Position numbers and translations under genes: made by a program. DNA of 64,000 bases from Bacteroidales bacterium (lineage in GTDB: Bacteria > Bacteroidota > Bacteroidia > Bacteroidales > VadinHA17): positions 5,710 to 69,709 of the forward strand of contig JADKBK010000042.1 in assembly GCA_016715075.1 (NCBI GenBank). The letters are read 5' to 3'. Under the pieces are notes generated by a model. It ran no database searches. It had not been told where the DNA came from and saw only the letters and a program-made list of their open reading frames with translations. Shown here piece by piece: positions 11,501 through 45,037 of this stretch; the stretch's first letter is position 1, and the number at the start of each line of letters is the position of its first letter.

Positions 11501-11628
11501 AATTTTTTGCTCCTTTTAACAATTAAGGGATTTAAACAACTACAAGTATCAAATATACAAAATACAGTAGGGTGTGAAATATTAACAGGCAAATAATTAC
11601 TATTTTCACCTGTTAAAGCTCAAAAAAT

Positions 11629-12324
11629 ATGAAGGTTGAAATTCTTGAATTTGTGGAAGGAGCACGAAAGGCAAGGGGAATAACTGTAATAATTGATGTA
11701 TTCAGAGCCTTTTCTGTAGGCTGCTATGCTTATGATTCAGGTGCCGAGAGAATTATTGCCACCGGGGATGTTGAAGCAGCATTTAATTTAAGGAAAATAT
11801 ATTCAAATGCTCTCCTTGTTGGTGAACGGGATGAAAAGATGATTCCTGGTTTTGACCTTGGAAACAGTCCGACTGAAATAATGCAGGCTGATCTTCATGG
11901 AAAAACTGTAATCCACACCACAACAGCCGGCACCCAGGGGCTGATAAACGCATCATTGGCCGACGTTGTCATCACAGGAAGTCTTGTAAACTCAGGTGCT
12001 GTTGTAAGATTCATTCAGGCGATGAAGCCAGATCATGTATCGCTTGTTGCCATGGGATACCGGGCCACTCAGTCGGCAGAGGAGGACCTTCTTTGTGCGC
12101 ACTTTATAAAAGATGGACTTCTGGGCGAAAACAGTGCATCTGATGAGATGATAACAGCTCTCATGGAGACCTCCGGAAAGAGATTTTTTAATCAGGATAA
12201 TATAAGATTCTCCCCTCCTTCAGATTTTTTCCTCTGTACAATGAAGGATCGCTTTAATTTCATACTCAGGGCTGAAACCCGGGAAGACGGAAATATTGCC
12301 CTTATTAAAACGGAGGTGTTTTAG
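11629..12324 (+). CDS. 2-phosphosulfolactate phosphatase (ComB) family protein
   Basis: VIIDVFRAFSVG..., VGERDEKMIPGFDLGNSPTE, HTTTAGTQG and AEEDLLCAHFI match the ComB family pattern as I recall it. Confidence 0.7.
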   Translation: MKVEILEFVEGARKARGITVIIDVFRAFSVGCYAYDSGAERIIATGDVEAAFNLRKIYSNALLVGERDEKMIPGFDLGNSPTEIMQADLHGKTVIHTTTAGTQGLINASLADVVITGSLVNSGAVVRFIQAMKPDHVSLVAMGYRATQSAEEDLLCAHFIKDGLLGENSASDEMITALMETSGKRFFNQDNIRFSPPSDFFLCTMKDRFNFILRAETREDGNIALIKTEVF

Positions 12325-12423
12325 AATGTATTTAACTACTATATAGCAGATTAAACAACTGCGAATATTATCTTTAAAATACCTATAGAATAAGCTTCGC
12401 ACAATAAATTAAGTTGAGAAGTA

Positions 12424-13359
12424 TCAGAAAATAGGATTAACCTTTTTTCGCTTATGGATCTCCCTGTAGGTGCAGAACATTGCCTCTTTATAAAACCTGA
12501 ACAGCAGAAGTGAAATATTGCCGGAATCGAGCCTGATCTCCATCCTGTCCCTGTACCTGATATAAAATCTGGCCAGGAGACCTGTCAATCTGAAGAACCT
12601 AAGTGAATTATATGTTCTGAGAACTTTAGCATTCCGTGAGAATGTCCGTTTATCTGTCACATTATCATACAGCCTGCTCAGGTTTTCAATTCCGAGCTTA
12701 GTCTTATTCAGGAACTCTTTATTTGTTTCAAGCCCTTCGTGAACGAGTCCGTTATCGATATGAAGCACATCGATCCCGGCTTTCTTAAGCTGGTAGCCCA
12801 TAAGAGTGTCCTCATAACCGTATTGTTTCAGACCTTCATTGAACCTGATCTTTGAAAAGACAGATTTCTCTATCATTACATTAAAAGTAGTGAACCATTC
12901 ATGAGGGTTCTTATTCTTTTCAGAAGCCTTACGTTGTTCGTACCACTTTCCGTATGTCCACCTCAGGAGCTTATCCGGGTCTCCGGGAGGTGCATCATGG
13001 TATAAAACTCCGCCGCAGATTACTTTGTAGACTGACATCATTGAAAGCCAGTTACGAAAATATGTTTCTGATGTGCCCTGCAGAACGGTATCAGCATCAA
13101 TAAAAAGGAGATAATCTCCTGATGCCTCCATCGCCAGTTTATTGCGGATAGCGGCCCTGCCAATATTCTTTTCAGAGGATATAAGCCTTACTCCTTCCCC
13201 TTCGATAGCTCGGTATTTCTCTTTAAATTCGGCGGATGAACCATCATCACCGATCAGTATTTCAATGAATTCAGGCACTTTTCCCAGTCCGCTTTTCATT
13301 CCATGAACAAGCGCTATGATATCATAATCATACACAGGAACAAGAAGAGAGATCTTCAT
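12424..13359 (-). CDS. Glycosyltransferase family 2
   Basis: ISLLVPVYDYD, DDGS and the FIDAD (DxD) motif; 311 aa. Confidence 0.75.
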   Translation of the reverse strand: MKISLLVPVYDYDIIALVHGMKSGLGKVPEFIEILIGDDGSSAEFKEKYRAIEGEGVRLISSEKNIGRAAIRNKLAMEASGDYLLFIDADTVLQGTSETYFRNWLSMMSVYKVICGGVLYHDAPPGDPDKLLRWTYGKWYEQRKASEKNKNPHEWFTTFNVMIEKSVFSKIRFNEGLKQYGYEDTLMGYQLKKAGIDVLHIDNGLVHEGLETNKEFLNKTKLGIENLSRLYDNVTDKRTFSRNAKVLRTYNSLRFFRLTGLLARFYIRYRDRMEIRLDSGNISLLLFRFYKEAMFCTYREIHKRKKVNPIF

Positions 13360-31437: not shown

Positions 31438-32745
31438 TCACTCTTTCAGGGCAGCATAACTTTTATTTCTTGAAATCATATACCTGAACGGATTGATAAT
31501 CTTCTGCAGGAGCCTTATATCTTCTGTGATGATTTCAGCTGTTCCCTGCATATTCTGTGTAAAATCAAGTTTCAATCCATAGAGTGTTGTAAGTCCATCC
31601 GGCAGATCAATCTCAATAATATATGAATCCAGTGAAGGAACAAGTGATATTGATTTGATAATACCTCTTACCATTCCGTATTCGAGATAAGGATAACCAC
31701 TGAGCTTAATATTAACCTTTTGACCAGGCTTCACTTTTCCGGAACGCTGCATTTTCAGATTTATCCTTCCCAGGTAATTACCAGTTTCAAGTGGTACTAC
31801 AGTCATTACGGGTTCATCTTTCACTACCGACTGATTTGCGTTCCAGAATCTGGTAAAGGAAACTGTTCCGGCTACCGGTGATATGAGTGTATAGGTATTT
31901 TCCCAGATTTTCAGCCTGGCATTAAGATTCATAAAAGATTCATTCAGAACAGAGACAAGTTTCTCCTTCTCTTCGATCTTTTTAATATTATAATCCTGCA
32001 GCAGCTGACGTTTTTCGGACATCTCTATTGATTTTTGGGAGTGGTCGAGCCGTACCTGCTGCAGTTCAATATCCTGGCGGATTAGTAACTGATGTGACCT
32101 TTCAAGTTCGCTTTCGGGTATTACCTTGCTAACAAAAAGCAGAGAGTCTCTCCTGAATTTTCTGTATTCAAGCTTCTGATTCTCAGAGAACAATTTCTCC
32201 TTTACTACCAGCCGGTTGATATACTCCTGTATTCCTCTGATCTCTGCAGTAAGGGAGGCAATCTTATTTCCGTAAAAATCATTGGTGATATAGTTATTCA
32301 GATCTGAAAGATTCTTAAGAAACAATCCGTAAACCTCCTGAAGTTCACCGAGCTGCGAAAAGCCCGGCAGTGATTTTGAGATCATTATTTCCGGTGTCCG
32401 GATAGTATCCACTGTTTGTTTCAGAAGCTTTATCTGATCAATAGAGGCAGTAGTTTCCATAACTGCCAGCAATTGACCGGCGGAGACATTCTCCTTCTCT
32501 TTGACATAAATATATTTTATGTTACCTGTTATCTTTGTTACAAGTGTTACAGGAGGATTAGAGGTTGTAATCTCGACAGGAGCGGGAATTGTATCAGGGT
32601 ACCTGATAAGCCAGGCAAAAAGTATGAACAGGACGAAGACAGCTACCATAACACCTGTTCCCCATCTGAGTATCCTGCGCGGAGGATTTCCCATGATCTC
32701 TTTAACAGGATCGGAATATAGTATTTCAGGTTTCCGGCTATTCAT
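31438..32745 (-). CDS. HlyD family secretion (membrane fusion) protein
   Basis: 435 aa. N-terminal TM (WGTGVMVAVFVLFILFAWLI), a long coiled-coil middle and a C-terminal beta-barrel domain. 8 nt downstream of the C39-ABC gene. Confidence 0.8.
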   Translation of the reverse strand: MNSRKPEILYSDPVKEIMGNPPRRILRWGTGVMVAVFVLFILFAWLIRYPDTIPAPVEITTSNPPVTLVTKITGNIKYIYVKEKENVSAGQLLAVMETTASIDQIKLLKQTVDTIRTPEIMISKSLPGFSQLGELQEVYGLFLKNLSDLNNYITNDFYGNKIASLTAEIRGIQEYINRLVVKEKLFSENQKLEYRKFRRDSLLFVSKVIPESELERSHQLLIRQDIELQQVRLDHSQKSIEMSEKRQLLQDYNIKKIEEKEKLVSVLNESFMNLNARLKIWENTYTLISPVAGTVSFTRFWNANQSVVKDEPVMTVVPLETGNYLGRINLKMQRSGKVKPGQKVNIKLSGYPYLEYGMVRGIIKSISLVPSLDSYIIEIDLPDGLTTLYGLKLDFTQNMQGTAEIITEDIRLLQKIINPFRYMISRNKSYAALKE

Positions 32746-32753
32746 TTGTGTTT

Positions 32754-34940
32754 TCAGTTTCCCAGTTCAAGCTGATTCTTAACAAGATTAAAATATGAGC
32801 CGTTTTTCCGTATAAGCGATTCATGGGTTCCTGTTTCAACTATTCTTCCTCCATCGAGTACAACGATTTTATCAGCATTTCTCACAGTGCTTAAACGGTG
32901 TGCCACTACAAGGACTGTTTTACCTTCAAAAAAATCTGACAGGTTTTCCACAATTACCTTCTCGTTATTGGCATCAAGAGAGTTTGTGGCTTCATCAAAG
33001 ATGATTATTTCAGGATTTTTATAGACTACGCGGGCAATGAGCAGGCGTTGTTTCTGTCCTTCACTCAGGCCATGGCCGCTGGCTCCTATTTTCGTATTAT
33101 AACTGAGAGGAAGCGACTCAATAAATCCTTTTATATTAGCAGTTTCAGCTGCTTTCAACAGTCTGTCTATGTCAATCTCTTCAGTTCCCGGGGCAATATT
33201 GAATGCTATTGTATCCGGAAACAGAAATCCATCCTGCATTACAGCTCCTACCTTTTCCCTCCATATTCTGAGACTGAGATTTGTCAGTCTTGTATCTCCT
33301 ATAAGGATCTCTCCCGTCACAGGCTTATAAAATCCAAGAAGCATTTTCAGAAGTGTCGTTTTTCCGCTACCGCTGGTACCGACTATTGCAGTTATTTTAT
33401 TCTCTTCAATAAATAAGTCTATATCCTTAAGGGCGTATGGTGATCTGGGGCCTTCATACTGATAGGACAGGTTATTTATATAGATATCTTTCTTGTCGGG
33501 CAGTTTGCGGACTTTCATCTCAGGATCGGGCTCTTCGTTATCCATATGGTGCACTTCAGCAAGGCGATCCAGACTCATTTTGGCATCCTGGGCAATGCGG
33601 AAGAAACCAATGATCTGACTTACAGGAACATTTATCTGGCCTATTATGAACTGAACTGCCAGCATCATACCAAGGGTCATAGTCCCATTAAGTACCGATG
33701 TAGCAGCCATTATTGTTATAAGGACATTGGTTATTTCATTAATAAAGGTCGCACCGGCTGACTGGTACTGAATCAGTCCCAATCCCCTTACTTTAAGACC
33801 GAAAAGCGAAGCCTGGATCTTTTCCCAATCCCATCTCATTGCGACCTCACTCTGTGTAAGTTTGATCTCCTGCATGCCATTCACAATGTTGATCAGCTTG
33901 CTGCCAGAGAGTGACATCTTCCGGAAACGCTCCTGATCCAGTCTTCCCCTTGCTTTCATAAAGAGGGAAACCCAAATAATATAGAGTATTGTCCCGGCCA
34001 GAAATAATCCAAGTATCTTAATACTGAATATTGCAAGGACAATACCGAAAACGACCATATTAAAAAATGAGAATAAGATTGAAAGACTGGCTGAGGTAAG
34101 GAAATCCTCAATCCTGTTATTATCCTCAATCCGCTGAAGTATATCTCCTGTCAGTTTGGTATCAAAAAATGCGACAGGCAATGACATAAGTTTCTGAAGA
34201 AAGCCTGAGATTATTGCCACGTTAACCCTGGAACCTATATGCAGAAGCAGCCAGCTTCGTATAAACTCGACTGACATTCTGCCAAAAACAAGTGCAAGCT
34301 GGGCAAAGAGTATAAGGTAAATAAAGCCTATATCATTATTATTCAAACCTATATCAACAATTGACTGGGTAAGGAAAGGTATTAAAAGCTGAATACAGCT
34401 TCCCAGCAGCAACCCAAGAATTAGCTGCAGGAAATATTTCCTGTACAAGTGGAAATATTTAAAGAGGAATCTGAATCCATTTGCAGCATCCTGATCACTA
34501 TCTTCGTCATACAGTGCAGGTGTAGGCTCAATAATAAGAACAAGGCCAACAGGCTTTCCATCAGCCATTGTGGATGCCCAGTTTCTTATGAATTCTTCAT
34601 GACTGTATTTTACATGTCCCACGGCCGGATCGGCAACCCATATCTTGTCTGCGCTTATTTTGTAAACAACTATAAAATGTTTTTGCCTCCAGAACACAAT
34701 ACATGGCAAAGGAACATTCTCACTGAGCATTTCAAATGGAATTTTCACTCCTATGGTATGGAACCCGAGGGAGTCGGCTGCTTCAGACAAACCAAGAAAT
34801 GATACCCCTTCCCTGGTGATATAACATCTCTTCCTGAGTGATTCCAGTGAAAAACTCTTTTTGTAATATGCTGCAATCATCTTTAGACAGGATGGACCGC
34901 AGTCCATTCCATCAGGTTGTTTCACAAAGGGGAAAGACAT
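32754..34940 (-). CDS. Peptidase C39 domain-containing ABC transporter (double-glycine peptide cleavage and export)
   Basis: 728 aa. N-terminal C39 domain with QPDGMDCGPSCLKMIAAY (catalytic Cys) and KHFIVVYK...VADPA (His/Asp region). Six-TM domain. NBD with GTSGSGKTT, LSEGQKQR and IIIFDEATNSLD. Confidence 0.9.
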   Translation of the reverse strand: MSFPFVKQPDGMDCGPSCLKMIAAYYKKSFSLESLRKRCYITREGVSFLGLSEAADSLGFHTIGVKIPFEMLSENVPLPCIVFWRQKHFIVVYKISADKIWVADPAVGHVKYSHEEFIRNWASTMADGKPVGLVLIIEPTPALYDEDSDQDAANGFRFLFKYFHLYRKYFLQLILGLLLGSCIQLLIPFLTQSIVDIGLNNNDIGFIYLILFAQLALVFGRMSVEFIRSWLLLHIGSRVNVAIISGFLQKLMSLPVAFFDTKLTGDILQRIEDNNRIEDFLTSASLSILFSFFNMVVFGIVLAIFSIKILGLFLAGTILYIIWVSLFMKARGRLDQERFRKMSLSGSKLINIVNGMQEIKLTQSEVAMRWDWEKIQASLFGLKVRGLGLIQYQSAGATFINEITNVLITIMAATSVLNGTMTLGMMLAVQFIIGQINVPVSQIIGFFRIAQDAKMSLDRLAEVHHMDNEEPDPEMKVRKLPDKKDIYINNLSYQYEGPRSPYALKDIDLFIEENKITAIVGTSGSGKTTLLKMLLGFYKPVTGEILIGDTRLTNLSLRIWREKVGAVMQDGFLFPDTIAFNIAPGTEEIDIDRLLKAAETANIKGFIESLPLSYNTKIGASGHGLSEGQKQRLLIARVVYKNPEIIIFDEATNSLDANNEKVIVENLSDFFEGKTVLVVAHRLSTVRNADKIVVLDGGRIVETGTHESLIRKNGSYFNLVKNQLELGN

Positions 34941-35062
34941 TTTATTTTCCGGAAATATATATTTTGCAGGTAAAGATATTTATATTTTTAGTTAAGAATT
35001 GTGAAGTCATGATAAAATCACAACATGGCAAACTATTAACCGGTTTTGGATCAGGGAAATAT

Positions 35063-35070
35063 TATATTTG
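35063..35070 (+). promoter_or_regulatory. Candidate -7 promoter box (TATATTTG) for the sigma-factor gene
   Basis: Matches TAnnTTTG, 22 nt upstream of the ATG at 35092. A TTTG lies at 35045-35048, but the spacing is shorter than I recall for the consensus. Confidence 0.4.
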
Positions 35071-35091
35071 CCAATTGATTCTTACTGTCGG

Positions 35092-35661
35092 ATGAGTATT
35101 TTCAGAAAAATACCGGATTCAAAAATAATTGAAGGCATACGGCTTCAGGATGATAAGATCCTGAACTGGTTATATGACAGCTATTTGCCTGCAATAAAGA
35201 ATCATGTGTTAAAGAACAGCGGTTCTATTGATGATGTTTCTGATGTATTTCAGGATTCAATAATTGTTCTCTACAGGCAGATAACTGAAGAAAATCTTAA
35301 TCTTACAACCGACCTGAAAGGTTATTTCTTCGGCATTGCACGTAATGTCTGGAGTGCCCAGTTAAGAAAAAATCAAAAAAGTACCGCACTGGATATTGAT
35401 ATTCCGGATGATGAACCCGATGAATATTCAGACCCTTTGATGGAAAGGGTGGTGAGCAGGGCGTTTGAGAAACTCAAGCCTGATCAGCAGCTGATTCTGA
35501 GTCTGTTTTCTGAGGGCTATTCTTATGAAGATATTGCAGTTAAGATGAATCTTAAGAATGAATTATACGCACGAAGGAAAAAATATCTTTGCAAGGAGGC
35601 TCTGCTTGATCTTGTAAAGGGTGATGAGGAATATCAGGAATTTCTGCGCCTCCAGAAATAA
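35092..35661 (+). CDS. Sigma-70 family (ECF-like) RNA polymerase sigma factor
   Basis: Region 2-like DDVSDVFQDSIIVLYRQI...YFFGIARNVWSAQLRK. Region 4 HTH DQQLILSLFSEGYSYEDIAVKMNLKNELYARRKKYLCKEAL. The ATG at 35092 is preferred because the TTG at 35068 lies inside the putative -7 box. Confidence 0.8.
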   Translation: MSIFRKIPDSKIIEGIRLQDDKILNWLYDSYLPAIKNHVLKNSGSIDDVSDVFQDSIIVLYRQITEENLNLTTDLKGYFFGIARNVWSAQLRKNQKSTALDIDIPDDEPDEYSDPLMERVVSRAFEKLKPDQQLILSLFSEGYSYEDIAVKMNLKNELYARRKKYLCKEALLDLVKGDEEYQEFLRLQK

Positions 35662-37469
35662 ACTAAAACCACTGCAGATATAGCTGTTACTGCCAGAGCA
35701 AGTAAAATGTATGAATGTCTTGAATAATATAATGGACGGTTGTCACCATAAACAACAAGCGACGACCAGAAATAGGGATGTGACCTAAGCTGGTCTGCAT
35801 TGTGAAGATAACTCAACCTGGCTCGCCTCAGTGCTGCGCTTTTGGTGTATCCGGCTTTAAGGTTATCATAAAATCTTTTGACAATGTCTGTGCCCGACTT
35901 ATCTTCAATTTCCCACATAGCCATAACTACCGATTCACTGCCTGAATACATAAATCCGCGTGCAAGGCTTAAGATACCCTCCCCGGAAGACAGAAAACCC
36001 GCTCCTGAGTTGCATGAACTCAGGACCACCATTTTTGCCTTCAGAGGAATACTGTAGACCTCATAGGTTTTAAGAAATCTGTCATCGGCGGTATCATTTT
36101 CTGAACTGAATATCAATGTGGAATACATTGGATCCTTATCGTTCAAAACAGTATGCATTGCAAGATGGATAATATCGTATTTCCCTGATTCATTTTTATA
36201 GACGGCTTCCTTAGCTTCCTCGTTCTCGTATAATGTCCCGTTTGTCAGATCAGAAACATATTCTGCCTCCTGCTTGGCATAAGGAAGATCAGGAAGCATC
36301 CCGTTAGTCATCTGTCGGTTCATCAGCACTGATCCAATATTGATTGGTTCAGAATAACTAGGAGCAAAAGCTATCAGCCGGTTACTTATGCTTCTCACCT
36401 TTTTCATGGATTCTGCCATAAAAGTAACAGAATAGGTATATGAAATATCAAATTCATTCATCAGATAATTAATCTGATTATACAGCATCCTGTCGTTTGC
36501 GGAGGGAGATGCTGGAATAGTTTCGAAAGGAATATAGGAAAGAATATTATCAGGAGAGATCAATAGTTTTCTGGAGATAAGGAAAGGTCTGATTGGTTCG
36601 ACGATCTTACGATACAAACGATAGCCAATCTGCTGAAAATTCTCAAATGCCACCCTTGCATTTCCGGAGGAAGAGGGCATTGCAAGCAGAGCCCTGAATT
36701 CCCTTATATCAGCATAAAAATTGCTGTCAACCGGAATTACAAGAAGTTCCCTGTTTTTTCTGTTGGCCACAAAAATATATAACAGAGTGTCCGAAGCAAC
36801 ATAATTTATATAGTTGCCATTTCTTCCTATCACACCTGATATCTCATCCAATTTTGTTACTGTTGTATTATATTTTAGTGCAAAATAATCGGGGTATTTT
36901 TTTTCAAAAACATTCACCAGCGAATCTTTCATCAAAGTAGTTGCAAGTATTTTCTCACTCCATGTTTTTATCAGGATTGTATCAGGCCTGTCCTCCTGTA
37001 CCTCTTCATCTATCTTTGCATTCATGAGATTAATTTCGCTCCTGAGTTTCTTTTCCAGATTGGCAAGATCAAAAGGAATACTAAACTGTGAAGCGTTTAA
37101 TTCCCTTGTAGCAGCAAGCAAACCTGCTACCTTACTCTTTTCGAGATACTCAAAGGCCTCTTCAAGATAATCTCTATTGCCGGAGATATTATACAGAAGA
37201 TTAAAATCCCTTATGGCATTAAGATAAGAAATGCGGTAGTTATCGCCCAGAATAAGCCTGCTGTCGTCTTCACTTATATTAATACGTAACTTTTCAAGTA
37301 CTCCTACTATCAGTTTTGCAGTAGATGATGCAGTCTTAAGAATTTCGGTATCCTGAGTTTTATTGTATATATTCCACAAAACCAGATATTTCAACTGCAC
37401 GAATTTAAGAGAAGTTTTTTCCACTTTAATTGACTCCAAAGGTGGATTCATTAAAAAGATCTTTTTCAA
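35634..37469 (-). CDS. CHAT domain (caspase-like protease) protein with a C-terminal TM anchor
   Basis: 611 aa. Catalytic dyad contexts YDIIHLAMHTVLND (His) and KMVVLSSCNSGAGFL (Cys). C-terminal TM YILLALAVTAISAVVLVYFW followed by RRRNS. Overlaps the upstream TPR ORF by 44 nt. Confidence 0.85.
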   Translation of the reverse strand: MKKIFLMNPPLESIKVEKTSLKFVQLKYLVLWNIYNKTQDTEILKTASSTAKLIVGVLEKLRINISEDDSRLILGDNYRISYLNAIRDFNLLYNISGNRDYLEEAFEYLEKSKVAGLLAATRELNASQFSIPFDLANLEKKLRSEINLMNAKIDEEVQEDRPDTILIKTWSEKILATTLMKDSLVNVFEKKYPDYFALKYNTTVTKLDEISGVIGRNGNYINYVASDTLLYIFVANRKNRELLVIPVDSNFYADIREFRALLAMPSSSGNARVAFENFQQIGYRLYRKIVEPIRPFLISRKLLISPDNILSYIPFETIPASPSANDRMLYNQINYLMNEFDISYTYSVTFMAESMKKVRSISNRLIAFAPSYSEPINIGSVLMNRQMTNGMLPDLPYAKQEAEYVSDLTNGTLYENEEAKEAVYKNESGKYDIIHLAMHTVLNDKDPMYSTLIFSSENDTADDRFLKTYEVYSIPLKAKMVVLSSCNSGAGFLSSGEGILSLARGFMYSGSESVVMAMWEIEDKSGTDIVKRFYDNLKAGYTKSAALRRARLSYLHNADQLRSHPYFWSSLVVYGDNRPLYYSRHSYILLALAVTAISAVVLVYFWRRRNS

Positions 37470-38754
37470 TCAATTCCTTTCCTCCCATTTCCCTGCCGGC
37501 GAATAAAATAGATTGTATTACGTCAAGGGCTTTGTAATTGTCACCATTATCCGCAAGAGCTGTTGCATACCCTAGATACAGAGGCACTTTAAGGAACAGA
37601 TTGGTGTGATTTTTATTGAGATAATCAAGACAGAGAGTAAAATATTCGAGTGATTTTTTGTTGGTAATATTAAATTCCCGCAGATATTCGGCGTAATTAA
37701 ACAGCGCAATAAAATATAAAGGAGATTCTTCTCCGTTATGTTCACGTGCTCTTATCACAGCCTGTCTCAGCAAATATTCCCCTCTCATTTTACTGCCATC
37801 CAATGCAAGGATAATGGCATAGTTGTTGATAAAACTATATGCCGGCTCAGAATTAGTTGACAGGGCCATATCAAGTCCTTTCTGATAAAATTCTGCCGAT
37901 TTTGTAAGTAATCCAAGGTATCGGTAAGTCATTGCCAGGTTACCCAAAACAGCGGAGTAGTTCTCATCTTTCTGAAGCCTGCTGTCACTGTAAACTGACA
38001 CAAATTTTTCCAGGTAGACTTTAGCTTTTGTATAGTCCGCGGTACGAAGGTACAATACGCCAAGGTTGCTATAAAATCCTGCCAGGTCAGCCTGGTCAAT
38101 TGTCCCGGGATTTTTTCCTGAAATATTCAGAGCAACATTTGAATATTCAATTGCTTTTTCATAATCAAGAAGACCGATGCAGGCTGTGGTTAGATTAAAA
38201 TATGTCTGGATCGACAATGGGCTCATTTCTCCATAAATCTTTTTTTCTACTTCAAGTGAGCTTTCAGAATAACGTCTCTGCCCTTCATAATCTCCAATTC
38301 CAAAATATGCTATTCCCAGATTATAAAGTGTTTTTGCATATCTCTCATCTGATTCATTATGGCTCTCCTTATAGGCAGCAGTAGATTCAAGGAATTTAAT
38401 TGCCTCACCAAATCTTTTTTCCTTCAGACAGTAGACTCCGAGCAGATAAGTTGCTGTTGATAACTGCTCACTATCGGCATTTCCTGCTGATTTTACGCTG
38501 CGGTCCAGTTTCTCTGCAACAATTTTGGTTTTAACCGGATCACCTGTGATAAGAGAGCTAAGCATTGCTTTATTCAGCGCATCCATTGATTCATGGTCTG
38601 CATCAATATACTTACTGTCATTGCTGTCAAAAAGAGTTAAAGAACAAGTCGTTACAGAGCACAGATATCCACTGTTGCCTGCCAGTGAAAATATAGGACC
38701 GGCAAACAGTACTAAAATAAATGTCATTCTTACAATAAGACAATACTTACTCAT
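37426..38754 (-). CDS. Tetratricopeptide-repeat protein with an N-terminal signal peptide; may be the N-terminal part of one TPR-CHAT protein
   Basis: Signal MSKYCLIVRMTFILVLFAGPIFSLAG. Repeated TPR units (AKTLYNLGIAYFGIGDYEGQRRY..., AGFYSNLGVLYLRTADYTKAKVY..., SAVLGNLAMTYRYLGLLTKSAEFY...). The junction with the CHAT ORF contains A5/T5 runs. Confidence 0.8.
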   Translation of the reverse strand: MSKYCLIVRMTFILVLFAGPIFSLAGNSGYLCSVTTCSLTLFDSNDSKYIDADHESMDALNKAMLSSLITGDPVKTKIVAEKLDRSVKSAGNADSEQLSTATYLLGVYCLKEKRFGEAIKFLESTAAYKESHNESDERYAKTLYNLGIAYFGIGDYEGQRRYSESSLEVEKKIYGEMSPLSIQTYFNLTTACIGLLDYEKAIEYSNVALNISGKNPGTIDQADLAGFYSNLGVLYLRTADYTKAKVYLEKFVSVYSDSRLQKDENYSAVLGNLAMTYRYLGLLTKSAEFYQKGLDMALSTNSEPAYSFINNYAIILALDGSKMRGEYLLRQAVIRAREHNGEESPLYFIALFNYAEYLREFNITNKKSLEYFTLCLDYLNKNHTNLFLKVPLYLGYATALADNGDNYKALDVIQSILFAGREMGGKELIEKDLFNESTFGVN

Positions 38755-38810
38755 GGAAATTGTGGGCTGCATTCCAAAAGACAAAACTAACGATTTTTCA
38801 AATTACAGGG

Positions 38811-38818
38811 CAAAAATA
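38811..38818 (-). promoter_or_regulatory. Candidate -7 box (TATTTTTG on the minus strand) for the TPR-CHAT operon
   Basis: Plus-strand caaaaata at 38811-38818 is the complement of a TAnnTTTG match, 57 nt upstream of the ATG at 38754. Confidence 0.3.
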
Positions 38819-38999
38819 AAAATCATTAGTTCAAAATAATTCACTTTATATCTGCATGATAATCAGGCATTGTGAAAATATTTTAAAAATATTTGATTTT
38901 TCCGTGTCACAAAACGACAGGGATCGACATGTAACAAGGTAAATGATAAATGAACGAAGAATTACCCTGAATTAGTATAAATATAAAAAAAAGAAAATT

Positions 39000-39134
39000 A
39001 TGAAAGCCCTGAATTTCGAATCGACAAAAAGCATTTTTGATGAGTTTGTACTTACAAATGAAGAGATGATAACAGTACGTGGCGGAGATAAAGATCCAAC
39101 TCCGATGCCTGCAACACCTCCCATTAAAATCTGA
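39000..39134 (+). CDS. Small precursor peptide with a double-glycine (GG) leader; 15-aa proline-rich core
   Basis: My own translation gives MKALNFESTKSIFDEFVLTNEEMITVRGG|DKDPTPMPATPPIKI* (44 aa, too short for the ORF track). The L..EEM....GG leader is typical of Bacteroidetes GG-type precursors. It has an A-rich leader (aaaaaaaagaaaatt), and a C39-ABC/HlyD exporter lies 4 kb away in the same block. Confidence 0.7.
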   Translation: MKALNFESTKSIFDEFVLTNEEMITVRGGDKDPTPMPATPPIKI

Positions 39135-39300
39135 TTTTTTAAGCAAACATCATATTTACGCCAACGCGTCAGTGGCGGATTTGTCTGACAATATTTTTAT
39201 ATATTTATTGCACTTGGCATGATTAATCTGCAAGCCTGGATTTAAGTGACTGGCAGCCGGTTAATCAAACGAAATGAACTTCATGAAGTTTTAAATCGGA

Positions 39301-39360
39301 GGGTTTTGCATCCTGACCGTCCACTCCCGGATTTTTCCGGGATGGATAAATGCAAAACCC
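39301..39360. repeat. Nested inverted repeat (60-nt stem-loop within a stem-loop)
   Basis: Outer arms gggttttgcat (39301-39311) and atgcaaaaccc (39350-39360) are perfect 11-bp complements. Inner hairpin tcccgg (39325-39330) / ccggga (39337-39342) has a 6-nt loop. Confidence 0.8.
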
Positions 39361-39389
39361 GGGGTTAAAACAGATTGAAATGCAATTGA

Positions 39390-39600
39390 GGGAATATGAA
39401 TTCTCATTTTGTGGGAATTATAATTTCTTAATAGTCGGGATGATGAATTCTCATTTTGGGGAATTATCATTTCTTGATAGACGGGATGATGAATTCTCAT
39501 TTTGGGGAATTATCATTTCTTGATAGACGGGAATATAACTTCTCATTCTGAGGAATTATAATTTCTCAATGGACGGGAATTTGAATTCTCAATAATTGTC
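39390..39600. repeat. 46-bp tandem direct repeat array (about 4.6 copies) carrying 8-9 copies of GAATTnT(C/A)ATTT
   Basis: Units are 39390-39436, 39437-39482, 39483-39528, 39529-39574 and the partial 39575-39600. Units 2 and 3 are identical. The array ends 18 nt before the ATG at 39619. Confidence 0.9.
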
Positions 39601-39618
39601 AACTATATTATAATACAT

Positions 39619-40364
39619 ATGAAAACAATCGATTTTTCACATTTCATTGAAAAGTATATTGCCGGCGAGATGGGAGAAGATGAGAAGCAATGGTTCGAAA
39701 AAGAACTCGAGGGCAATGCAAATCTCCGTGCTGAGGTTGATCTCAGAAAAAAAACAGATCTGGTACTTAAGAACCAGAATATAATCACATTAAGGAATAA
39801 GCTTTCAGTTATTGAAAACAACGTCGTGAAGCTGAAATTAGTGTTACCTCTTCATCACGACCTCTTTATTTCAGATATGCGGCAGCACTGGCGGTAATGG
39901 CAGTGATCGGAGGTACATTCCTTTACTCAGGTAAAAACCAGGGAGGTGATGTGATCGACCGGTACTATAAAATTTATGAACCACCTACAAGTCAAAGGTC
40001 AGGAATTATTGAAGCGAATGCAGATTTCACTCTTGCATTGGAATTTTACAATACTAATGACTTTGCCAATGCTGCACTGTTTTTCAGCAAAGTTGTAGAG
40101 AGCAATCCAAAAGATATGCAATCTGTTCTGCTGAACGGAGTATCAAACTTTGAGGATAAGAAATATCCGGAGGCAAAACTATCATTTTCGACTGTAATTG
40201 CTGATAACAACAACCTTTTCATAGAGACAGCCAAATGGTACCTGGCACTCTGCTACGTAAAAACGAATGAAAAAGAGAAGGCAATAAATCAGTTGCAGAT
40301 CATTACCAGGGAGGATGGCATTTACAGCAAAGATGCCGGAAAGATCTTAAGAAAACTTAAATAA
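39619..40364 (+). CDS. Anti-sigma-like single-pass membrane protein with a periplasmic TPR domain (homopolymer frameshift at 39815-39818)
   Basis: N-terminus FIEKYIAGEMGEDEKQWFEKELEGNANLRAEVDL resembles anti-sigma N-domains. Reading one frame over from 39816 gives KQRREAEISVTSSSRPLYFRYAAALAVMAVIGGTFLY (TM), which joins ORF 39897-40364 (TPR: ...ALEFYNTNDFANAALFFSKVVESNP...). Confidence 0.7.
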
Positions 40365-40384
40365 ACAGACAGAGGCTGTACATT

Positions 40385-41221
40385 ATGTTTGACTTGTCAA
40401 TATCGGAGAATTGTGCTGGGGAGAATTCCAGGATCAACAAGATTGATTCCGGAACGGAGAAGGATACATTGAGGAATATTACGATAAATTGTCCGTCACT
40501 CATAACCGGGATGTCTCATGAGATGCGAACTCATATGAATGCCGTTGTTGCTTTTTCCTACCTGATGAAAGACAGTTGCTGCAGCAACTCAGACAGAGAG
40601 GAATTCAGCAATCAGATTCTGAGTTCATGTGAACAACTTATAGGGCTTTTTGACAGTTTCCTTGATTCAGCAATCATTGATTTGGGTAATTCAAAGAGTG
40701 ATTCAAGGATATGCAAACTCAATAACATGCTTGACGACCTTCTTTCCGAATTCAGGGAAATACTAAGGAGGGAAGGTCAGAAGGAACTGGAACTCATTAA
40801 TGAGGGCCAGGTTTCGGATATCTCCGAAGTTTTTCTGGACAAACACCGGGTTTTCAGGGTTATCCGGAGTTTATTCCAGAATGCTGTAAAGAACACAAAA
40901 TCTGGTTATATTAAAGTCGGTTACCATTTCAGGGATGACACTATAACCTTTTTTGTACTCGATTCCGGCCAGGGTTACTTTAAATGCAAAGAATTTCTTC
41001 ACACTGAGGATCTGAATGACTCGCTAGTCCAGCACAATGACATGTATACAGCGATCAACCTTACCCTGGCCAAGAAGCTTATTCATATGTTGGGTGGTAC
41101 AATCTGGATAGAATGCAACGGACTCACAGGGTCCGCAGTCTATTTCTCCGTTCCTGCAAAGGCGGCGGGCGCCACCGACATTAAAATTAATAAATACATT
41201 AATACCGTGATTGCTATCTGA
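40385..41221 (+). CDS. Histidine kinase core (HisKA plus HATPase_c) without TM or sensor domain
   Basis: H-box ITGMSHEMRTHMNAVVAF, N-box RSLFQNAVKNT, G1 VLDSGQG, G2-like GLTGSAVYF; 278 aa. 20 nt downstream of the anti-sigma-like gene. Confidence 0.75.
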   Translation: MFDLSISENCAGENSRINKIDSGTEKDTLRNITINCPSLITGMSHEMRTHMNAVVAFSYLMKDSCCSNSDREEFSNQILSSCEQLIGLFDSFLDSAIIDLGNSKSDSRICKLNNMLDDLLSEFREILRREGQKELELINEGQVSDISEVFLDKHRVFRVIRSLFQNAVKNTKSGYIKVGYHFRDDTITFFVLDSGQGYFKCKEFLHTEDLNDSLVQHNDMYTAINLTLAKKLIHMLGGTIWIECNGLTGSAVYFSVPAKAAGATDIKINKYINTVIAI

Positions 41222-41297: not shown

Positions 41298-43232
41298 ATT
41301 TTACGCTCTGGATTATCTTTGCTTCTGTGCGCCGGTTAAGTCTTCTGCCCTCTTCAGTAATATTATCACCAATAGGAGAAGTATTACCATATCCTTTCGA
41401 TTTCAGTCTGTCAGCTGAAATGCCCCTGTTTATGAGATAGCTTACGACCGACATAGCTCTTTTTTCTGAAAGTGAAAGATTATATTCCTTTGATCCGGTT
41501 GCATCAGTATACCCCCCTATTTCAATCAGCAGCCCTTTATTATCGATAAGAAGGTCGGCAAGTGTATTAAGTTCTGACATTGATTCCTTTTTCAGTTCCC
41601 AGGAGTCGATCTCATAAAATACATTCGTAAGCAGCATCGTCTCCCCCACTTTTAAGGGGCTGAGGCTAATCTTTTTGACATAAGGCTGGATAGCAGGATG
41701 CTCTCCTTCAAACATAAAATTTTCCGAATAGAACAGATAACCTGCCTTGCTTACATTTATCCCGTAATTATATCCCGACGGAAGACAGACAAGAAAATTA
41801 CCATTTCCATCTGTCGAACTTCTGATAGTTACTTTATTCGTTGAAAGATTTATTAATTCATATTTAGCTTTCAATAATCTGCCCGATTCCTTATCATATA
41901 CTTTCCCCTTAAGATAGGAGACAGCAGCAGGCCTGACAGATTCATAAAGGTCGAAATAGAATATATCTTTTCCGTTAATTTTATCCCGGATTGAAGAAAA
42001 ATAGGCTTTCTGCCCTCCGGATTCAATGACAAGTCCCATCTCATCATTGTATGTATTAATAGGATAGCCCAGATTTTGCGGATCTGACCACGAGCTATCA
42101 CTGTTCATCCTGGTCATGAAAATATCAAAGCCGCCAAGCCCGGTTCTGCCATCAGATGCAAAATAGAGGGTTTTTCCATCAAAATGAATAAAGGGAGACA
42201 TTTCATCGCCATCAGTATTTATTTTATCACCCATATTTACAGGAGTCATCCATTCATTCTTTTCATTCATGAGTGAATACCAAAGATCTTTGGCACCTAT
42301 CCCACCCGGTCTGCTACTGGAGAAAAAGAGTATTTTTCCATCGGCGCTTATTGAAGGCTGTGACTCCCAGTAGGATGAGTTTACAGGAGAACGGAGGTTA
42401 TAAGGCTCTGTCCATTTTCCGTCATTGAATGAGGAGAAATATATATCGCAGCTACCCACCCCTCCGGGTCTGTCACAGGCTGTAAAATACATATATCTTC
42501 CGTTGGATGAAAGTGTCTGGGCTCCTTCATTCTGCCTGGTATTCAGTGGAGTACCAGCATTAACTGATTTTTGCCAGGCATCATCAGTATAATAACTTAA
42601 AAGAAATCTTCCTGGAGGAATTCCTTGGAGGAGGAACCGCTATGAGAGACAGGCTGCCTCGTAAACATAAGGGTCTGTCCATCCGCTGTTATTGAAGGCC
42701 AATACTCATCATCAGTGGTATTTATTGCACCTCCGATATTAACCGGATTAAAAGGGACTGGGTTCTTCAGCGCATTAATTGAAAATTCACAATTTCTGAC
42801 ATTCTTAAGTGCAACAGTTCTGTTTTTCTCAGACATCCCCTTCTGCCAGAGGTATACATTAAAATGTACCAGGGCTCCTGCATATTCGCCGGATTTCATT
42901 TCAGCCATGCCCAGACTGAAAAAAACCTGTTTGAAGAACATTGAATCAAGCTTAACGGCTTTTCTGTAATTCGCAACAGCTTCAGTGTATCTTCGTTGTT
43001 TTGCCATTAATTCCCCGAGCATAATATATGCTTCAAAGAACTCCCCGTCGGCAGAGATAGCCTCCTTAAAAGATAATTCAGCCTTCGCAAAGTCGAAATA
43101 ATCATAAGAGGTAACACCCTCATTATACATTTTCAGAGCCTTGTTTGACCTGGTATGGAAGCTCTGGGAATAAGATATGCCTGATGCAGCAAAAAAAGTA
43201 ATCAGTATAAATATTGCAGTCAGCTGTTTCAT
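41296..43232 (-). CDS. OmpA family protein with N-terminal TPR and TolB-like (PD40) beta-propeller repeats, split by a homopolymer frameshift
   Basis: ORF 42597-43232 has a signal peptide, TPR and ...WPSITADGQTLMFT. ORF 41296-42492 has PD40-like repeats and the OmpA domain IEIGGYTDATGSKEYNLSLSEKRAMSVVSYL...NRRTE. The linking sequence SYYTDDAWQKSVNAGTPLNTRQNEGAQTLSSNGRYMYF is open one frame over. The shift is at 42597-42602. Confidence 0.8.
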
Positions 43233-43920: not shown

Positions 43921-45037
43921 TCACTTAACAGGTTGTGACAATTGAATCTTCATAAGGTTCAAAAATTCTTCGTAAAAAAAAGTATTATCGTGAATGCCTG
44001 AGAATTTTTCCGCACCGGGTCCAAAAGAAAATATGGGTACCATAACAGCTGTATGATCACCATCGGTAAATTTCACTTCAACTTTATGGTCAGTCATACT
44101 TCCGCCTGTAAGTGCGATACCTCCAGTCTCATGATCAGCAGTTACAACTATCAGTGTATTCTTATTTCCGGATGCAAAATTCGCAGCAACTCCAATAGCA
44201 TTATCAAGATCCATCATCTCTGTTACCACATATTCAATATTTTGTGCATGGCCTCCCCAGTCGATCTGTGATCCTTCAACCATCAGGAAAAAAGCCCTTG
44301 TCATTTTTACTCAGAGTCTCTATTGCTTTTCGTGTCATTTCAGCCAGTGCTCCTGTCCGTCCAGCTGTAACCGGAGGCATATGTTCTTTAGCCAGCAGGG
44401 CGGCAAGTTTTTTTGATTCAGACTTCTTCATATCCTCAAGTGTATAAACCACATCAAAACCCTGCTGTTTCAGGTTAATAGTGAGGTCAGCGCTGTCCTT
44501 TCTGACCCTGAAATGGTTCTCTCCACCACCGATAAAGACGTCGACAGTCCCATTCAGAAAATCCCTGGCAATATCTTCGTAGTTCCCTCTCCCCGCGTTA
44601 TGTGCGACAAAGGATGCCGGCGTTGCATGTGTTATTGCGCTGGTACTTACAACTCCTGTGGCATAACCATTTTTATGGGCTAATTCCAATATTGAATTCA
44701 CGACTGAACTGTCAGGCCTTACTCCTATCATTCCGTTATTTGTTTTCGTTCCGCAGGCAATTGCAGTGCCACCTGCACCGGAATCTGTTATGTAGCTGTC
44801 GGCTGAATAGGTTTTGGAAAATCCGGAGTAGGGAAATGTTTCCAGATAAAAAGGTACCTGACTGACAGTCATGCCCGCGTAGACCTGGGAGACCCCCATT
44901 CCATCACCAATAAAAAGAATAATATTTTTTAATGATTTAACTTTTCCGGTCTTTTCCGTCCTGCCATTCCATTCGAATCCGGTTAGCATTACTACAGATA
45001 TCATGAGCAATGCATGAAGAGTGTTCTTTTTAATCAT
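43921..45037 (-). CDS. Alkaline phosphatase (PhoA family), split by a homopolymer frameshift
   Basis: NIILFIGDGMGVSQ, DSGAGGTA, ...KGFF|LMVEGSQIDWGGH, VTADHETGG and GDHT. The frames meet at 44286-44293 (GG plus A6 on the plus strand). The ATG at 45037 is preferred. Confidence 0.85.

Follow-up and report, generated by a model that had tools for sequence, protein, structure and literature searches.

The 64-kb stretch of DNA analysed here (hereafter the window), from a contig of a Bacteroidales bacterium, contains a block (31438-41221) encoding a candidate regulatory module comprised of an extracytoplasmic function (ECF)-type sigma factor, a caspase-like TPR-CHAT protease, an anti-sigma-like membrane protein and a 44-codon gene for a peptide with a double-glycine (GG) leader (Table 1). 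These are accompanied by a peptidase-containing ABC (ATP-binding cassette) transporter (PCAT) with its HlyD-family partner, and by a histidine-kinase-like protein. The listing of open reading frames (ORFs), together with Pfam and NCBIfam profile searches on the window ORFs, recovered every protein that an earlier sequence-only reading of this DNA had named, with Peptidase_C39, CHAT, sigma-70 regions 2 and 4, and HisKA/HATPase_c all matched; the six elements of that reading are all found at the coordinates it gave. In public records the parts are named merely 'TPR protein', 'CHAT domain protein' or 'hypothetical'. The block is flanked by pyrG and a DUF349 gene on one side, and by genes for a PorE-like OmpA-family protein and QueE on the other. 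Within it, the sigma and TPR-CHAT genes are convergent with overlapping 3' ends, the kinase-like gene begins 20 nt after the anti-sigma-like gene, and the sigma and anti-sigma-like genes lie on the same strand, 4 kb apart.

Table 1. Features of the block in window coordinates, with strand and basis of assignment
Feature	Position	Strand	Basis
HlyD-family membrane-fusion (periplasmic adaptor) protein, 435 aa, ABC exporter partner	31438-32745	-	HlyD_3 E=1e-10; TIGR01843 E=6e-25
PCAT: C39 double-glycine peptidase + transmembrane domain + ATPase, 728 aa	32754-34940	-	Peptidase_C39 E=9e-36, ABC_membrane, ABC_tran
TATATTTG box, 22 nt 5' of the sigma start codon	35063-35070	+	fits Bacteroidetes -7 consensus
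ECF-type (group IV) sigma-70 factor, 189 aa from ATG	35092-35661	+	Sigma70_r2 E=2e-6, r4_2 E=3e-5; TIGR02937
TPR-CHAT protease gene, about 1,039 aa when repaired, frameshift-split here	35634-38754	-	CHAT E=1e-54 + orthologue alignment
CHAT ORF as assembled	35634-37469	-	CHAT E=1e-54
TPR ORF as assembled	37426-38784	-	
Putative two-block ECF-type promoter of the peptide gene	38904-38933	+	conserved motif
5'-untranslated region (UTR) element GAATTACCCTGAATTAGTAT, between promoter and peptide start codon	38958-38979	+	conserved in close loci
44-codon GG-leader peptide gene	39000-39134	+	ORF absent from supplied ORF track; orthologues
Small hairpin (CGCCA...TGGCG) just 3' of the peptide stop codon	39159-39177	+	same place in L002 and most close loci
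Strong extended hairpin GGGTTTTGCAT...ATGCAAAACCC	39301-39361	+	fold z=-3.1
46-bp tandem repeat x4.4	39390-39591	+	Tandem Repeats Finder score 276, 87% matches
Anti-sigma-like single-pass membrane protein, about 248 aa when repaired	39619-40364	+	family alignment; sub-threshold anti-sigma matches
DHp/CA-only histidine-kinase-like protein, 278 aa, soluble	40385-41221	+	HisKA E=1.5e-8, HATPase_c E=5e-8

The sequence-only reading had described separate TPR and CHAT proteins; these are a single gene split by a frameshift, and the orthologues are single proteins. As assembled, the two ORFs overlap by 44 nt in different frames, with the break in an A5 run near 37447-37462, and deleting one A of the GAAAAAG run fuses them into a 1,039-aa protein that lines up from one end to the other with some 70 undivided proteins of 1,020-1,045 aa (50-70% identity, 93-100% coverage). 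The anti-sigma-like gene is also broken, near 39825, and its repaired 248-aa product matches 249-aa proteins over 100% of the length at up to 79% identity. With the PorE-like OmpA gene (about 42500-42600) and an alkaline phosphatase gene (44276-44304) likewise split, the frameshifted genes of the window number four, several of the breaks falling at short homopolymer runs. A second assembly (GCA_016709425.1; L001), which is 98-100% identical, shows one- and two-base homopolymer indels exactly at the TPR/CHAT junction, and the deposited annotation (P0212, IPN67_21530, Bacteroidales bacterium) carries a truncated 155-aa product. Given the four split genes, the homopolymer indels relative to L001 and this truncated deposited product, the frameshifts are most likely long-read assembly errors. 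The window probably stems from an error-prone long-read metagenome-assembled genome, and its ORF-based annotation is therefore unreliable.

A scan with a TPR-CHAT profile across one genome per species recovered 80 loci, all of them from Bacteroidia, with which the window proteins were compared by tblastn and in which GG-leader mini-ORFs were scanned separately. Those with a TPR-CHAT protein at least 33% identical are termed close, and those at 28-33% (n=41), around each of which the ORFs were clustered, distant. All of the approximately 34 close loci with enough flank preserve the full order queE-PorE-kinase-antisigma-peptide-TPRCHAT-sigma-C39ABC(-HlyD)-DUF349-pyrG; hence, by its gene order, the locus appears to be vertically inherited at a single chromosomal site across a wide clade and not to be mobile. 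The C39-ABC exporter is 54-86% identical across all close loci and the HlyD gene adjoins it in 24 of them; HlyD was not detected in a subclade of 10 loci plus L083, which keep the ABC gene (L025-L029, L031, L032, L035, L040, L070, and L083). Order conservation within one syntenic clade, whose housekeeping neighbors are syntenic too, is weak evidence of function, and the distant loci therefore weigh more.

The sigma gene lies beside the TPR-CHAT gene in all close loci and in 32 of the 41 distant ones, among which the anti-sigma-like gene is found in 27, the kinase-like gene in 11, and the C39-ABC and HlyD genes in five; many of the distant loci without a given partner are truncated contigs. Two gene orders occur among them, viz., that of the window, or a TPR-CHAT gene followed by a convergent sigma-then-anti-sigma pair in the manner of a classic ECF operon, with the anti-sigma-like gene directly 3' of the sigma gene in about 14 loci. 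A GG-leader ORF of 35-70 codons, sometimes duplicated, lies just 5' of the TPR-CHAT gene and divergent from it in approximately 21 of the 28 distant loci with enough DNA, in most cases with the exporter absent locally; in the five exporter-bearing loci the genes form one co-directional string, peptide-antisigma-kinase-C39ABC-HlyD. As a core, about 40 distant Bacteroidia loci retain TPR-CHAT, the ECF sigma factor, the anti-sigma-like protein with its transmembrane (TM) helix and TPRs, and the divergent GG-leader mini-gene, in flanks different from those of the window's clade. TPR-CHAT relatives at about 27% identity occur without any partner gene, which indicates that the association is specific to this TPR-CHAT family. 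On this comparative evidence, the parts belong together, with TPR-CHAT, the ECF sigma factor, the anti-sigma-like TM-TPR protein and the GG peptide as the core and the exporter and kinase-like protein as frequent accessories. At least dozens of species-level genomes and many metagenomes carry the module, as do the cultured isolates Labilibaculum manganireducens and Sunxiuqinia dokdonensis. Individual loci show duplications: two tandem TPR-CHAT genes are found in L050 and L072, two anti-sigma-like genes in L044, and tandem peptide genes in L039, L045, and L050, whose predicted mature peptides are identical and whose leaders differ slightly.

The product of the 44-codon ORF is MKALNFESTKSIFDEFVLTNEEMITVRGG followed by DKDPTPMPATPPIKI; its leader ends in FVLTNEEMITVRGG, and DKDPTPMPATPPIKI is the predicted exported 15-mer. 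The GG-leader pattern has a single match in the whole window on both strands (128 kb), and the position of the ORF is thus not due to chance. Orthologues occur in 33 close and about 21 distant loci, always adjoining the TPR-CHAT gene in divergent orientation. Across the 14 orthologues of exactly 44 codons, the variable columns at codon positions 1, 2, and 3 number 26, 24, and 40 of 44, a signature that points to a coding ORF. The proposal in the sequence-only reading that these genes form a module is thereby sustained on two points that could have refuted it, with synteny across dozens of genomes and a small ORF conserved with a coding signature. Among the matches listed in metagenomes there are 73 further copies behind the same promoter (see below). 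Their leaders follow the consensus F-[AV]-L-[ST]-N-E-E-M-I-x-V-R-G-G, Glu-8, Gly-2, and Gly-1 being invariant, and have the double glycine, the hydrophobic residues at -4/-7/-12 and the acidic residue at -8 or -9 of PCAT substrates, such that cleavage is predicted from sequence.

The cores of these copies are 12-22 aa long (most commonly 15), have a net side-chain charge of about -1 that is never positive, contain 24% Pro, and include Cys in 2 of 73. They open with an acidic stretch, [DE]-G/x-[DE]-P, continue with a variable middle and terminate in a conserved P-P-[IV]-[KEI]-[ILV] (PP[IV]x[ILV]). Where HlyD is missing, in the subclade named above, the peptide is of a separate, longer type with the end ...PT[RK]PP[IV]IIE[ILF]; without the adaptor, release might be into the periplasm only, with the signaling being autocrine. 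By these features the peptide looks like a linear ligand with a defined C-terminus rather than a bacteriocin. Class II bacteriocins have a cationic or amphiphilic core of about 25-60 aa and a linked immunity gene, whereas the window's core has 15 residues and a charge of about -1, and no small membrane-protein gene is adjacent. Moreover, unlike in ribosomally synthesized and post-translationally modified peptides (RiPPs), no modifying enzyme is encoded with the precursor. In agreement with the sequence-only reading, which saw no peptide-modifying enzyme, the sole nearby radical-SAM gene, considered as a hidden maturase, was rejected: it is a 203-aa QueE-type protein that matches five QueE models, and the QueE gene is not linked to the module in distant loci. 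A homologue search with the 44-aa peptide gave six near-identical matches, all 'hypothetical' and none providing a public name for the family; such a search needs shared words, and much more was learned from regular-expression scans of the loci themselves.

Upstream of the peptide gene lies a two-block motif, GTGTCACAAA and GACATGTA separated by a 12-nt spacer, with a conserved A/T-rich stretch (TTGATTTTTyC) just 5' of it; the close loci share TTGATTTTTyGTGTCACAAA, the 12-nt spacer and GACATGTA. The 64-kb window has a single copy of the motif, where 0.01 would be expected, and the motif stands exactly once per locus in 32 of the 41 close loci over 828 kb, the nine exceptions being truncated or having a one-base variant. 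Not one of the 73 metagenomic peptide loci among the matches listed departs from the 12-nt spacer. In distant loci the blocks take the form GGGT(T/A)ACCTTTT-N11-GAAT(A/T)AA, and in the three distant loci with the sigma factor most like that of the window they are GGTGACATTT and GGAAC. The same distant motif is found about 40 nt 5' of the sigma/anti-sigma operon in L048, L050, L053, L056, L065, L075, L077, and L080. The two blocks resemble ordinary ECF-type -35 and -10 elements (with an AAC-type -35), and ECF sigma factors normally transcribe their own operon, self-transcription being the usual ECF signature. As the motif is common to the sigma operon and the peptide gene and changes in step with the module, the comparative evidence is good for transcription of the peptide gene by the sigma factor of the module. 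The link between the two drawn in the sequence-only reading thus gains a dedicated ECF-type promoter at the peptide gene, which distant relatives share with the sigma/anti-sigma operon.

In the window's clade the ECF-type motif stands before the peptide gene only, and the sigma gene is without it. There, about 35 loci share a GGAAATAyTATATTTGCC block between the sigma and ABC genes, and these two genes carry conserved boxes (TATATTTG for sigma) that match the housekeeping -7 consensus of Bacteroidetes, TAnnTTTG. On account of these housekeeping-type boxes, the sensor and exporter are probably constitutive and the peptide gene the inducible element. Between the promoter and the start codon, the GAATTACCCTGAATTAGTAT element shows an ACCCTGA-like core in 58 of 73 metagenomic peptide loci among the matches listed and is absent from other gene families behind the same promoter; it might act in translation or as a further site of regulation. 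The small hairpin after the stop codon is a possible attenuator before the anti-sigma gene, and a terminator scan called no canonical intrinsic terminator after the peptide gene.

The larger hairpin and the repeat array, which the sequence-only reading counted as components of the module, are real and lineage-specific, and were rejected as module parts. The hairpin has no counterpart in L002 or other loci, and an E-value search of 31-42 kb against Rfam gave nothing relevant, so that this structured element corresponds to no known RNA family. The array, made up of 46-bp units of two 23-bp half-units each, recurs nowhere else in the window and stops some 28 nt short of the anti-sigma start codon; it is absent from orthologous loci, where the intergenic length is 171-406 nt against 487 nt in the window. 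Both elements are missing from the intact orthologous locus L002. The array may be an expansion of a local promoter region. The 39.3-39.6 kb region proposed in that reading for a reporter is accordingly the wrong target, being non-conserved, and the conserved promoter is that upstream of the peptide gene.

The metagenome scan with the window-type motif yielded at least 120 stretches, of which 110 were evaluable, and the counts in this paragraph hold among the matches listed. A GG-leader ORF of the same family is found within 45-65 nt 3' of the motif in about 74 of the 110 evaluable stretches, and a TPR-CHAT gene on 59 of the 120 loci, many of the rest being short. Other genes behind the motif encode a secreted Gly/Tyr-rich protein of about 320 aa with a Peptidase_S74 'tail-fibre chaperone' domain (seven loci: L093, L096, L107, L121, L131, L133, and L169), a 247-aa family without a Pfam match (MASxSETGHAKNVANFD...; six loci: L095, L117, L135, L138, L192, and L195), a small HTH_11 protein (five loci: L089, L092, L112, L151, and L158), and an M4 protease with a type-IX secretion (T9SS) tail (two loci: L165 and L200). 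In the metagenomic L151, the HTH gene is followed by HlyD and C39-ABC genes, a second HTH gene and two bacteriocin-like GG peptides. These metagenomic non-peptide genes are possible regulon members. A related arrangement is seen in the cultured Labilibaculum manganireducens (L053), where copies of the local motif stand before the peptide gene, before the sigma operon and, at 10954-12942 of that locus, before a small HTH_11 gene, a Cys-rich GG peptide (MNTIKLTELTVRELEDVKGG/IHDRDASPDDHCLCNGNDIDGCIKSADA) and a 408-aa radical-SAM gene. This cluster, whose HTH protein is homologous to the metagenomic one, is about 6 kb from the module, beyond housekeeping genes, and resembles a RiPP locus controlled by the same sigma factor. 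Together, these genes suggest antagonism and secretion as the output.

The exporter matches TIGR01193/TIGR03796 (E about 1e-121 to 1e-128) and has an intact ATPase with Walker A and signature motifs. The intact C39 Cys/His region noted in the sequence-only reading is indeed present, with the catalytic Cys, His, and Asp and the oxyanion Gln of a PCAT in canonical motifs of the N-terminal domain, viz., Q8 and C14 (KQPDGMDCGPSC), H88 (KHFIVVY), and D104 (VADPAVG). The sigma factor scores 56.9 bits with TIGR02937 (cut-off 42.9) and, at 189 aa with sigma-2 and sigma-4 as its only regions, has the form of the group IV factors (about 170-200 aa).

The anti-sigma-like protein is laid out as an N-terminal helical domain of about 65 aa (consensus IERYLxGEMxxxExxxFEKELxxNxxL...LRxxL), a TM helix, a predicted periplasmic YYxPY...RS motif in which Arg128 is nearly invariant in the family alignment, and about three TPRs. 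NCBIfam anti-sigma models match 17, 7, and 4 of 38 members, all below the cut-offs, with a best E=3e-7; zf-HC2 is the only Pfam family matched by several of the N-terminal domains (7 of 29), and the Zn ligands (HxxxCxxC) of such domains are absent. An AlphaFold2 (AF2) model reached a predicted local distance difference test (pLDDT) score of 67 and gave no significant match with Foldseek, and against the PDB the N-terminal domain recovered RsrA only at E=0.94. In public records these proteins are called just 'TPR protein' or 'TolA-binding protein'. The best PDB match of the N-terminal profile (39619-39820) is a Nif11 domain-containing protein (9zn4_A, E=0.002, 34 residues); the Nif11 domain is also the leader of some GG-cleaved peptide precursors, and the match may be a mere helical low-complexity resemblance. 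Prolixibacteraceae-type loci have a longer version of 435-515 aa with the N-terminal helical domain in three tandem copies before the TM helix (L067 6937-8244, L068 7725-9041, L069 6736-8286, L071 6718-8256, and L075 11805-13313).

The kinase-like protein has nothing in front of its DHp domain, neither a TM helix nor a sensor domain. The H-box (SHEMRT, His45), N and G1 boxes are kept and G2 is lost, such that it departs from two-component histidine kinases, in which H, N, G1, and G2 are all intact. In an alignment of 44 orthologues, the G2 motif GLGLGL is replaced by AINLTL throughout the window's clade, and the phospho-acceptor His by Arg (SREMRT) in L011, L013, and L033; in several distant loci the motifs are canonical. 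By sequence it may be a pseudokinase or scaffold rather than a working kinase. Being soluble and without a sensor domain, it cannot be the peptide receptor, unlike the kinase of the Gram-positive circuits with which the sequence-only reading compared the block, and it is an accessory part of the module. No receiver domain was found within the block among Pfam matches or in neighborhood comparisons. A receiver-domain gene near the module in L002 and the PorE-like neighbor were both considered as partners and rejected, as neither is linked to the module in distant loci.

The CHAT domain (PF12770) of the protease shows the clan CD fold with a His-Cys dyad, as seen in the profile match, the model and its Foldseek neighbors. 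Its predicted catalytic residues, His867 (codon 36153-36155) and Cys914 (codon 36012-36014), are invariant in 28 sequences, and the intact His and Cys contexts reported in the sequence-only reading thus extend across the family. The AF2 model of the intact orthologue P0018 (pLDDT 81; predicted template modeling score, pTM, 0.76) comprises a hydrophobic helix (6-20), a disordered linker (21-55), a TPR array (57-417), a helical scaffold (445-641), the CHAT domain (645-1002), and a TM helix (1012-1037). About nine residues, including Lys and Arg, precede the first hydrophobic helix and an RRRNS tail follows the last; hence, the bulk of the protein should be periplasmic and anchored in the inner membrane. 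A Foldseek search of the PDB with this model returned DdvA first (8rw5/8rot, E=2e-12), followed by separases and the Craspase protein Csx29 (E about 1e-12; 7zoq, 8d9f and others). At the sequence level, the CHAT ORF had no match in the PDB, the full profile recovered mainly generic TPR proteins, among which the matches to NprR and Rap (E about 1e-12 to 1e-14) are not specific, and weak NCBIfam matches were obtained to Csx29 (E=0.04; 12.8 bits, with the cut-off at 300) and to the type III-E sigma factor (E=0.0014). Identity to the L002 orthologue is 48% in the TPR array, 62% in the scaffold and 76% in the CHAT domain, i.e., the TPR part diverges fastest, as expected of a ligand-specificity domain.

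The structural neighbor DdvA is a Myxococcus anti-sigma factor with a fused periplasmic TPR-CHAT module, which is proposed to cut its own linker as a site-1 protease, leading to RseP-dependent release of the ECF sigma factor DdvS (PMC11506125). Its trigger, so far unknown, is suspected to be a phage-associated protein; outside Myxococcota, DdvA-like proteins were reported from a single Comamonas species, and a CBASS-CRISPR island is under DdvA/DdvS control (PMC11506125; CBASS: cyclic oligonucleotide-based antiphage signaling system). Going by the models, the Bacteroidia module looks like DdvA divided into two proteins, and the fusion of anti-sigma and TPR-CHAT in DdvA links the two functions in the manner of a Rosetta stone.

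We consider it quite probable that the block is an ECF sigma/anti-sigma switch whose local target is the PCAT-exported peptide, whose gatekeeper is the periplasmic TPR-CHAT protease, and whose wider targets include GG-peptide/RiPP loci and secreted proteins. Going further, we tentatively read the block as one regulatory module around the ECF sigma factor that operates as a peptide-signaling switch with positive feedback, a view we place just short of an even chance. In this model, for which we infer the topologies, active sites and GG processing from sequence features, the sigma factor would be made from a housekeeping-type promoter and held at the inner membrane by the anti-sigma-like protein, whose small TPR domain would be periplasmic. 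Upon release, it would transcribe the 44-codon gene, and the C39-ABC/HlyD exporter would cut the precursor after Gly-Gly and export a short, acidic, Pro-rich, Cys-free peptide ending in PP[IV]x[ILV]. The TPR-CHAT protein would be a signal-responsive site-1 protease, activated at its His-Cys site by peptide lying in the TPR groove; it would then clip the juxtamembrane YYxPY...RS segment of the anti-sigma, and intramembrane proteolysis would free the sigma factor. A pheromone-like, positive-feedback loop would thus be closed, and the bacteriocin/RiPP-type GG-peptide loci and secreted proteins with the same promoter would be further outputs. The peptide as ligand and the anti-sigma as CHAT substrate, both already put forward in the sequence-only reading, and any role of the degenerate kinase-like protein are hypothetical. 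This specific loop, in which the freed sigma makes more peptide, is possible though a little less than evenly poised; in its favor are the placing of the presumed receptor beside its ligand, the ligand-like character of the peptide, the rapid evolution of the TPR array, the precedent of DdvA and the working analogy with DegS described below.

Several observations weigh against this model. The window-clade sigma factor appears constitutive, and autoregulation is seen only in the distant relatives. The anti-sigma assignment draws on sub-threshold matches in a domain without HxxxCxxC, with no significant Foldseek match for a model of pLDDT 67, and the periplasmic placement of TPR-CHAT derives from its hydrophobic ends and the positive-inside rule. 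The absence of HlyD in ten close loci means that extracellular release is not universal, and faster TPR divergence is predicted equally by arms-race or conflict models. The metagenomic non-peptide genes behind the motif are not assignable to module-carrying genomes, L053 excepted. Finally, the frameshifts in TPR-CHAT and anti-sigma would, if real, make this copy dead.

The main rival, which we regard as unlikely, holds that the peptide is an output only and that TPR-CHAT and the anti-sigma sense envelope perturbation, a competitor or phage protein, or foreign peptides, with no autoinduction. The promoter evidence places the peptide gene downstream of the sigma factor and nothing more, and genes for bacteriocin-like, RiPP-like and secreted products also stand behind the motif. 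Envelope cues are what ECF systems commonly respond to, a phage-associated protein is the suspected trigger of the DdvA TPR-CHAT (PMC11506125), and the fast divergence of the TPR array would suit recognition of foreign ligands. However, cores of 12-22 aa that are acidic, Pro-rich and Cys-free, neither amphipathic nor cationic, and without an immunity gene nearby are unlike known bacteriocins. Furthermore, the peptide gene adjoins TPR-CHAT divergently in both gene orders, even without a local exporter, which is the usual layout of a receptor and its pheromone, and the conserved C-terminal motif with a variable middle suits a ligand. Distinctly improbable, in our estimate, is a role of the peptide as a substrate of the CHAT domain, i.e., a second maturation step that trims the acidic N-terminal part, or as a securin-like pseudo-substrate that keeps the protease off. 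The conserved acidic stretch opening the cores, the membership of CHAT in the caspase clan, the separase-securin complexes among the structural neighbors and the two-step leader removal known for other GG-peptides all speak for such a role, yet it leaves unexplained both the constant sigma/anti-sigma company of the protease and the DdvA fusion, and a TPR array of 360 residues exceeds the needs of a trimming protease.

That the locus is an anti-phage or inter-bacterial conflict system with CHAT as a toxic effector protease, the alternative offered in the sequence-only reading, is very improbable. TPR-CHAT proteases do act in type III-E CRISPR (Craspase), DdvA/DdvS controls a CBASS-CRISPR island, and the weak NCBIfam matches to Csx29 and the type III-E sigma factor point in the same direction. 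Against this, PADLOC was negative save for generic ABC ATPase matches, no relative was found on viral contigs, the 10-kb surroundings of the loci hold no cas, CBASS or toxin genes, the site between pyrG and queE is fixed and vertically inherited rather than a variable island, and the protease is predicted to face the periplasm; the searches thus lend that alternative no support. It is harder still to credit that a bacteriocin export locus lies by chance beside an ordinary ECF sigma/anti-sigma pair and a TPR-CHAT gene, as the synteny of the whole window-clade neighborhood, housekeeping genes included, might allow. The distant loci, where the core quartet recurs with different flanks and in two gene orders, and the promoter common to the peptide gene and the sigma operon contradict it, as do the TPR-CHAT relatives at about 27% identity without any of the partners.

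Full-text literature searches found no description of this module, so that the statement in the sequence-only reading that no characterized system has this composition stands to that extent; it overlooked DdvA/DdvS as the closest precedent. As in DdvA/DdvS, an ECF sigma factor would be controlled at the inner membrane, through a large periplasmic TPR-scaffold-CHAT with a His-Cys dyad and a flexible linker to a TM helix, the CHAT domain being proposed there as the site-1 protease ahead of RseP. In DdvA, however, anti-sigma and TPR-CHAT reside in one polypeptide, combining a cytoplasmic Zn anti-sigma domain, a TM helix and the periplasmic TPR-CHAT in a single chain; in the Bacteroidia module they are on two membrane proteins, with the anti-sigma-like domain on the separate 248-aa protein. 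The module's TPR-CHAT has an additional C-terminal TM anchor and a sequence identity of about 11% to DdvA, its anti-sigma has its own small TPR domain and is without Zn ligands, and a sigma-dependent GG-leader peptide gene is present, often with C39-ABC/HlyD and a kinase-like gene. No CBASS or CRISPR island of the kind controlled by DdvA was found within 10 kb or by PADLOC. Type III-E Craspase (Cas7-11, Csx29 TPR-CHAT, Csx30, Csx31, and RpoE) is similar in having a TPR-CHAT protease whose substrate controls an ECF-like sigma factor, but it is cytoplasmic, RNA-activated and bound to Cas7-11, without membrane anchors, peptide or exporter, and neither Cas7-11/gRAMP, Csx30/31 nor a CRISPR array is present at our locus.

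A match in mode of action is offered by the DegS/RseA/RseP/sigma-E pathway of Escherichia coli. There, hydrophobic C-terminal peptides activate a membrane-anchored periplasmic protease that has a peptide-binding domain; site-1 cleavage of a single-pass anti-sigma follows, and the ECF sigma is released. The proteases of the two systems are not homologous. DegS differs in pairing a PDZ with a trypsin-like domain instead of TPR with CHAT, and in being activated by misfolded porin ends and not by a dedicated gene product. The Gram-positive GG-pheromone circuits (ComC/ComAB/ComDE-SigX, BlpC/BlpAB/BlpHR, and the plantaricin type) share with the module a GG peptide exported by a C39-ABC transporter with an accessory protein, a peptide gene under control of the pathway, bacteriocin-type GG-peptide outputs and an alternative sigma factor. 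In contrast to them, the module has neither a membrane sensor kinase nor a response regulator; transduction would be by anti-sigma proteolysis through a caspase-like protease, and the Gram-negative envelope allows for sensing in the periplasm. The RRNPP receptors (Rap, NprR, PlcR, and PrgX), as is proposed for the TPR-CHAT protein of the module, have TPR arrays for short unmodified peptides encoded beside the receptor, but they bind these in the cytoplasm after re-import and act directly as transcription factors or phosphatases, and their peptides are exported by Sec or PptAB rather than by a GG/C39 system.

All parts of the module come from known families, and regulated anti-sigma proteolysis is a known principle. 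What is new is the pairing of a stand-alone, doubly anchored, putatively periplasmic TPR-CHAT protein with an anti-sigma factor that is a second protein and bears TPRs of its own, the fixed inclusion of a mini-peptide that would depend on the sigma factor and leave through the PCAT, and the occurrence of this combination across Bacteroidia, culturable isolates included. To our knowledge, peptide-based cell-cell signaling, a textbook subject in Firmicutes, is essentially unknown in Bacteroidota, a phylum dominant in guts, sediments and wastewater. With the reserve due to a proposition that we think somewhat more likely wrong than right, we propose that the module is a peptide-pheromone system of Bacteroidia, in which the TPR array of a membrane-anchored caspase-like protease serves as the periplasmic sensor of a ribosomally made, unmodified GG peptide released through a PCAT, and cleavage of the anti-sigma by that protease allows the ECF sigma to amplify the peptide together with bacteriocin/RiPP and secreted-protein genes. 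If this is true, Bacteroidota would have their first described peptide circuit for quorum or autocrine sensing, and a ligand-gated CHAT protease would for the first time be seen to make the site-1 cut in an anti-sigma factor on another polypeptide; the module would also hint at the kind of signal sensed by DdvA-type proteins. TPR-CHAT proteases are widespread and poorly understood, with DdvA as the one membrane member characterized so far, and the module offers a candidate ligand for their periplasmic sensor versions; its culturable carriers make the model testable in culture. The promoter shared with bacteriocin/RiPP-like loci suggests that the module controls antagonism in the communities where these bacteria live.

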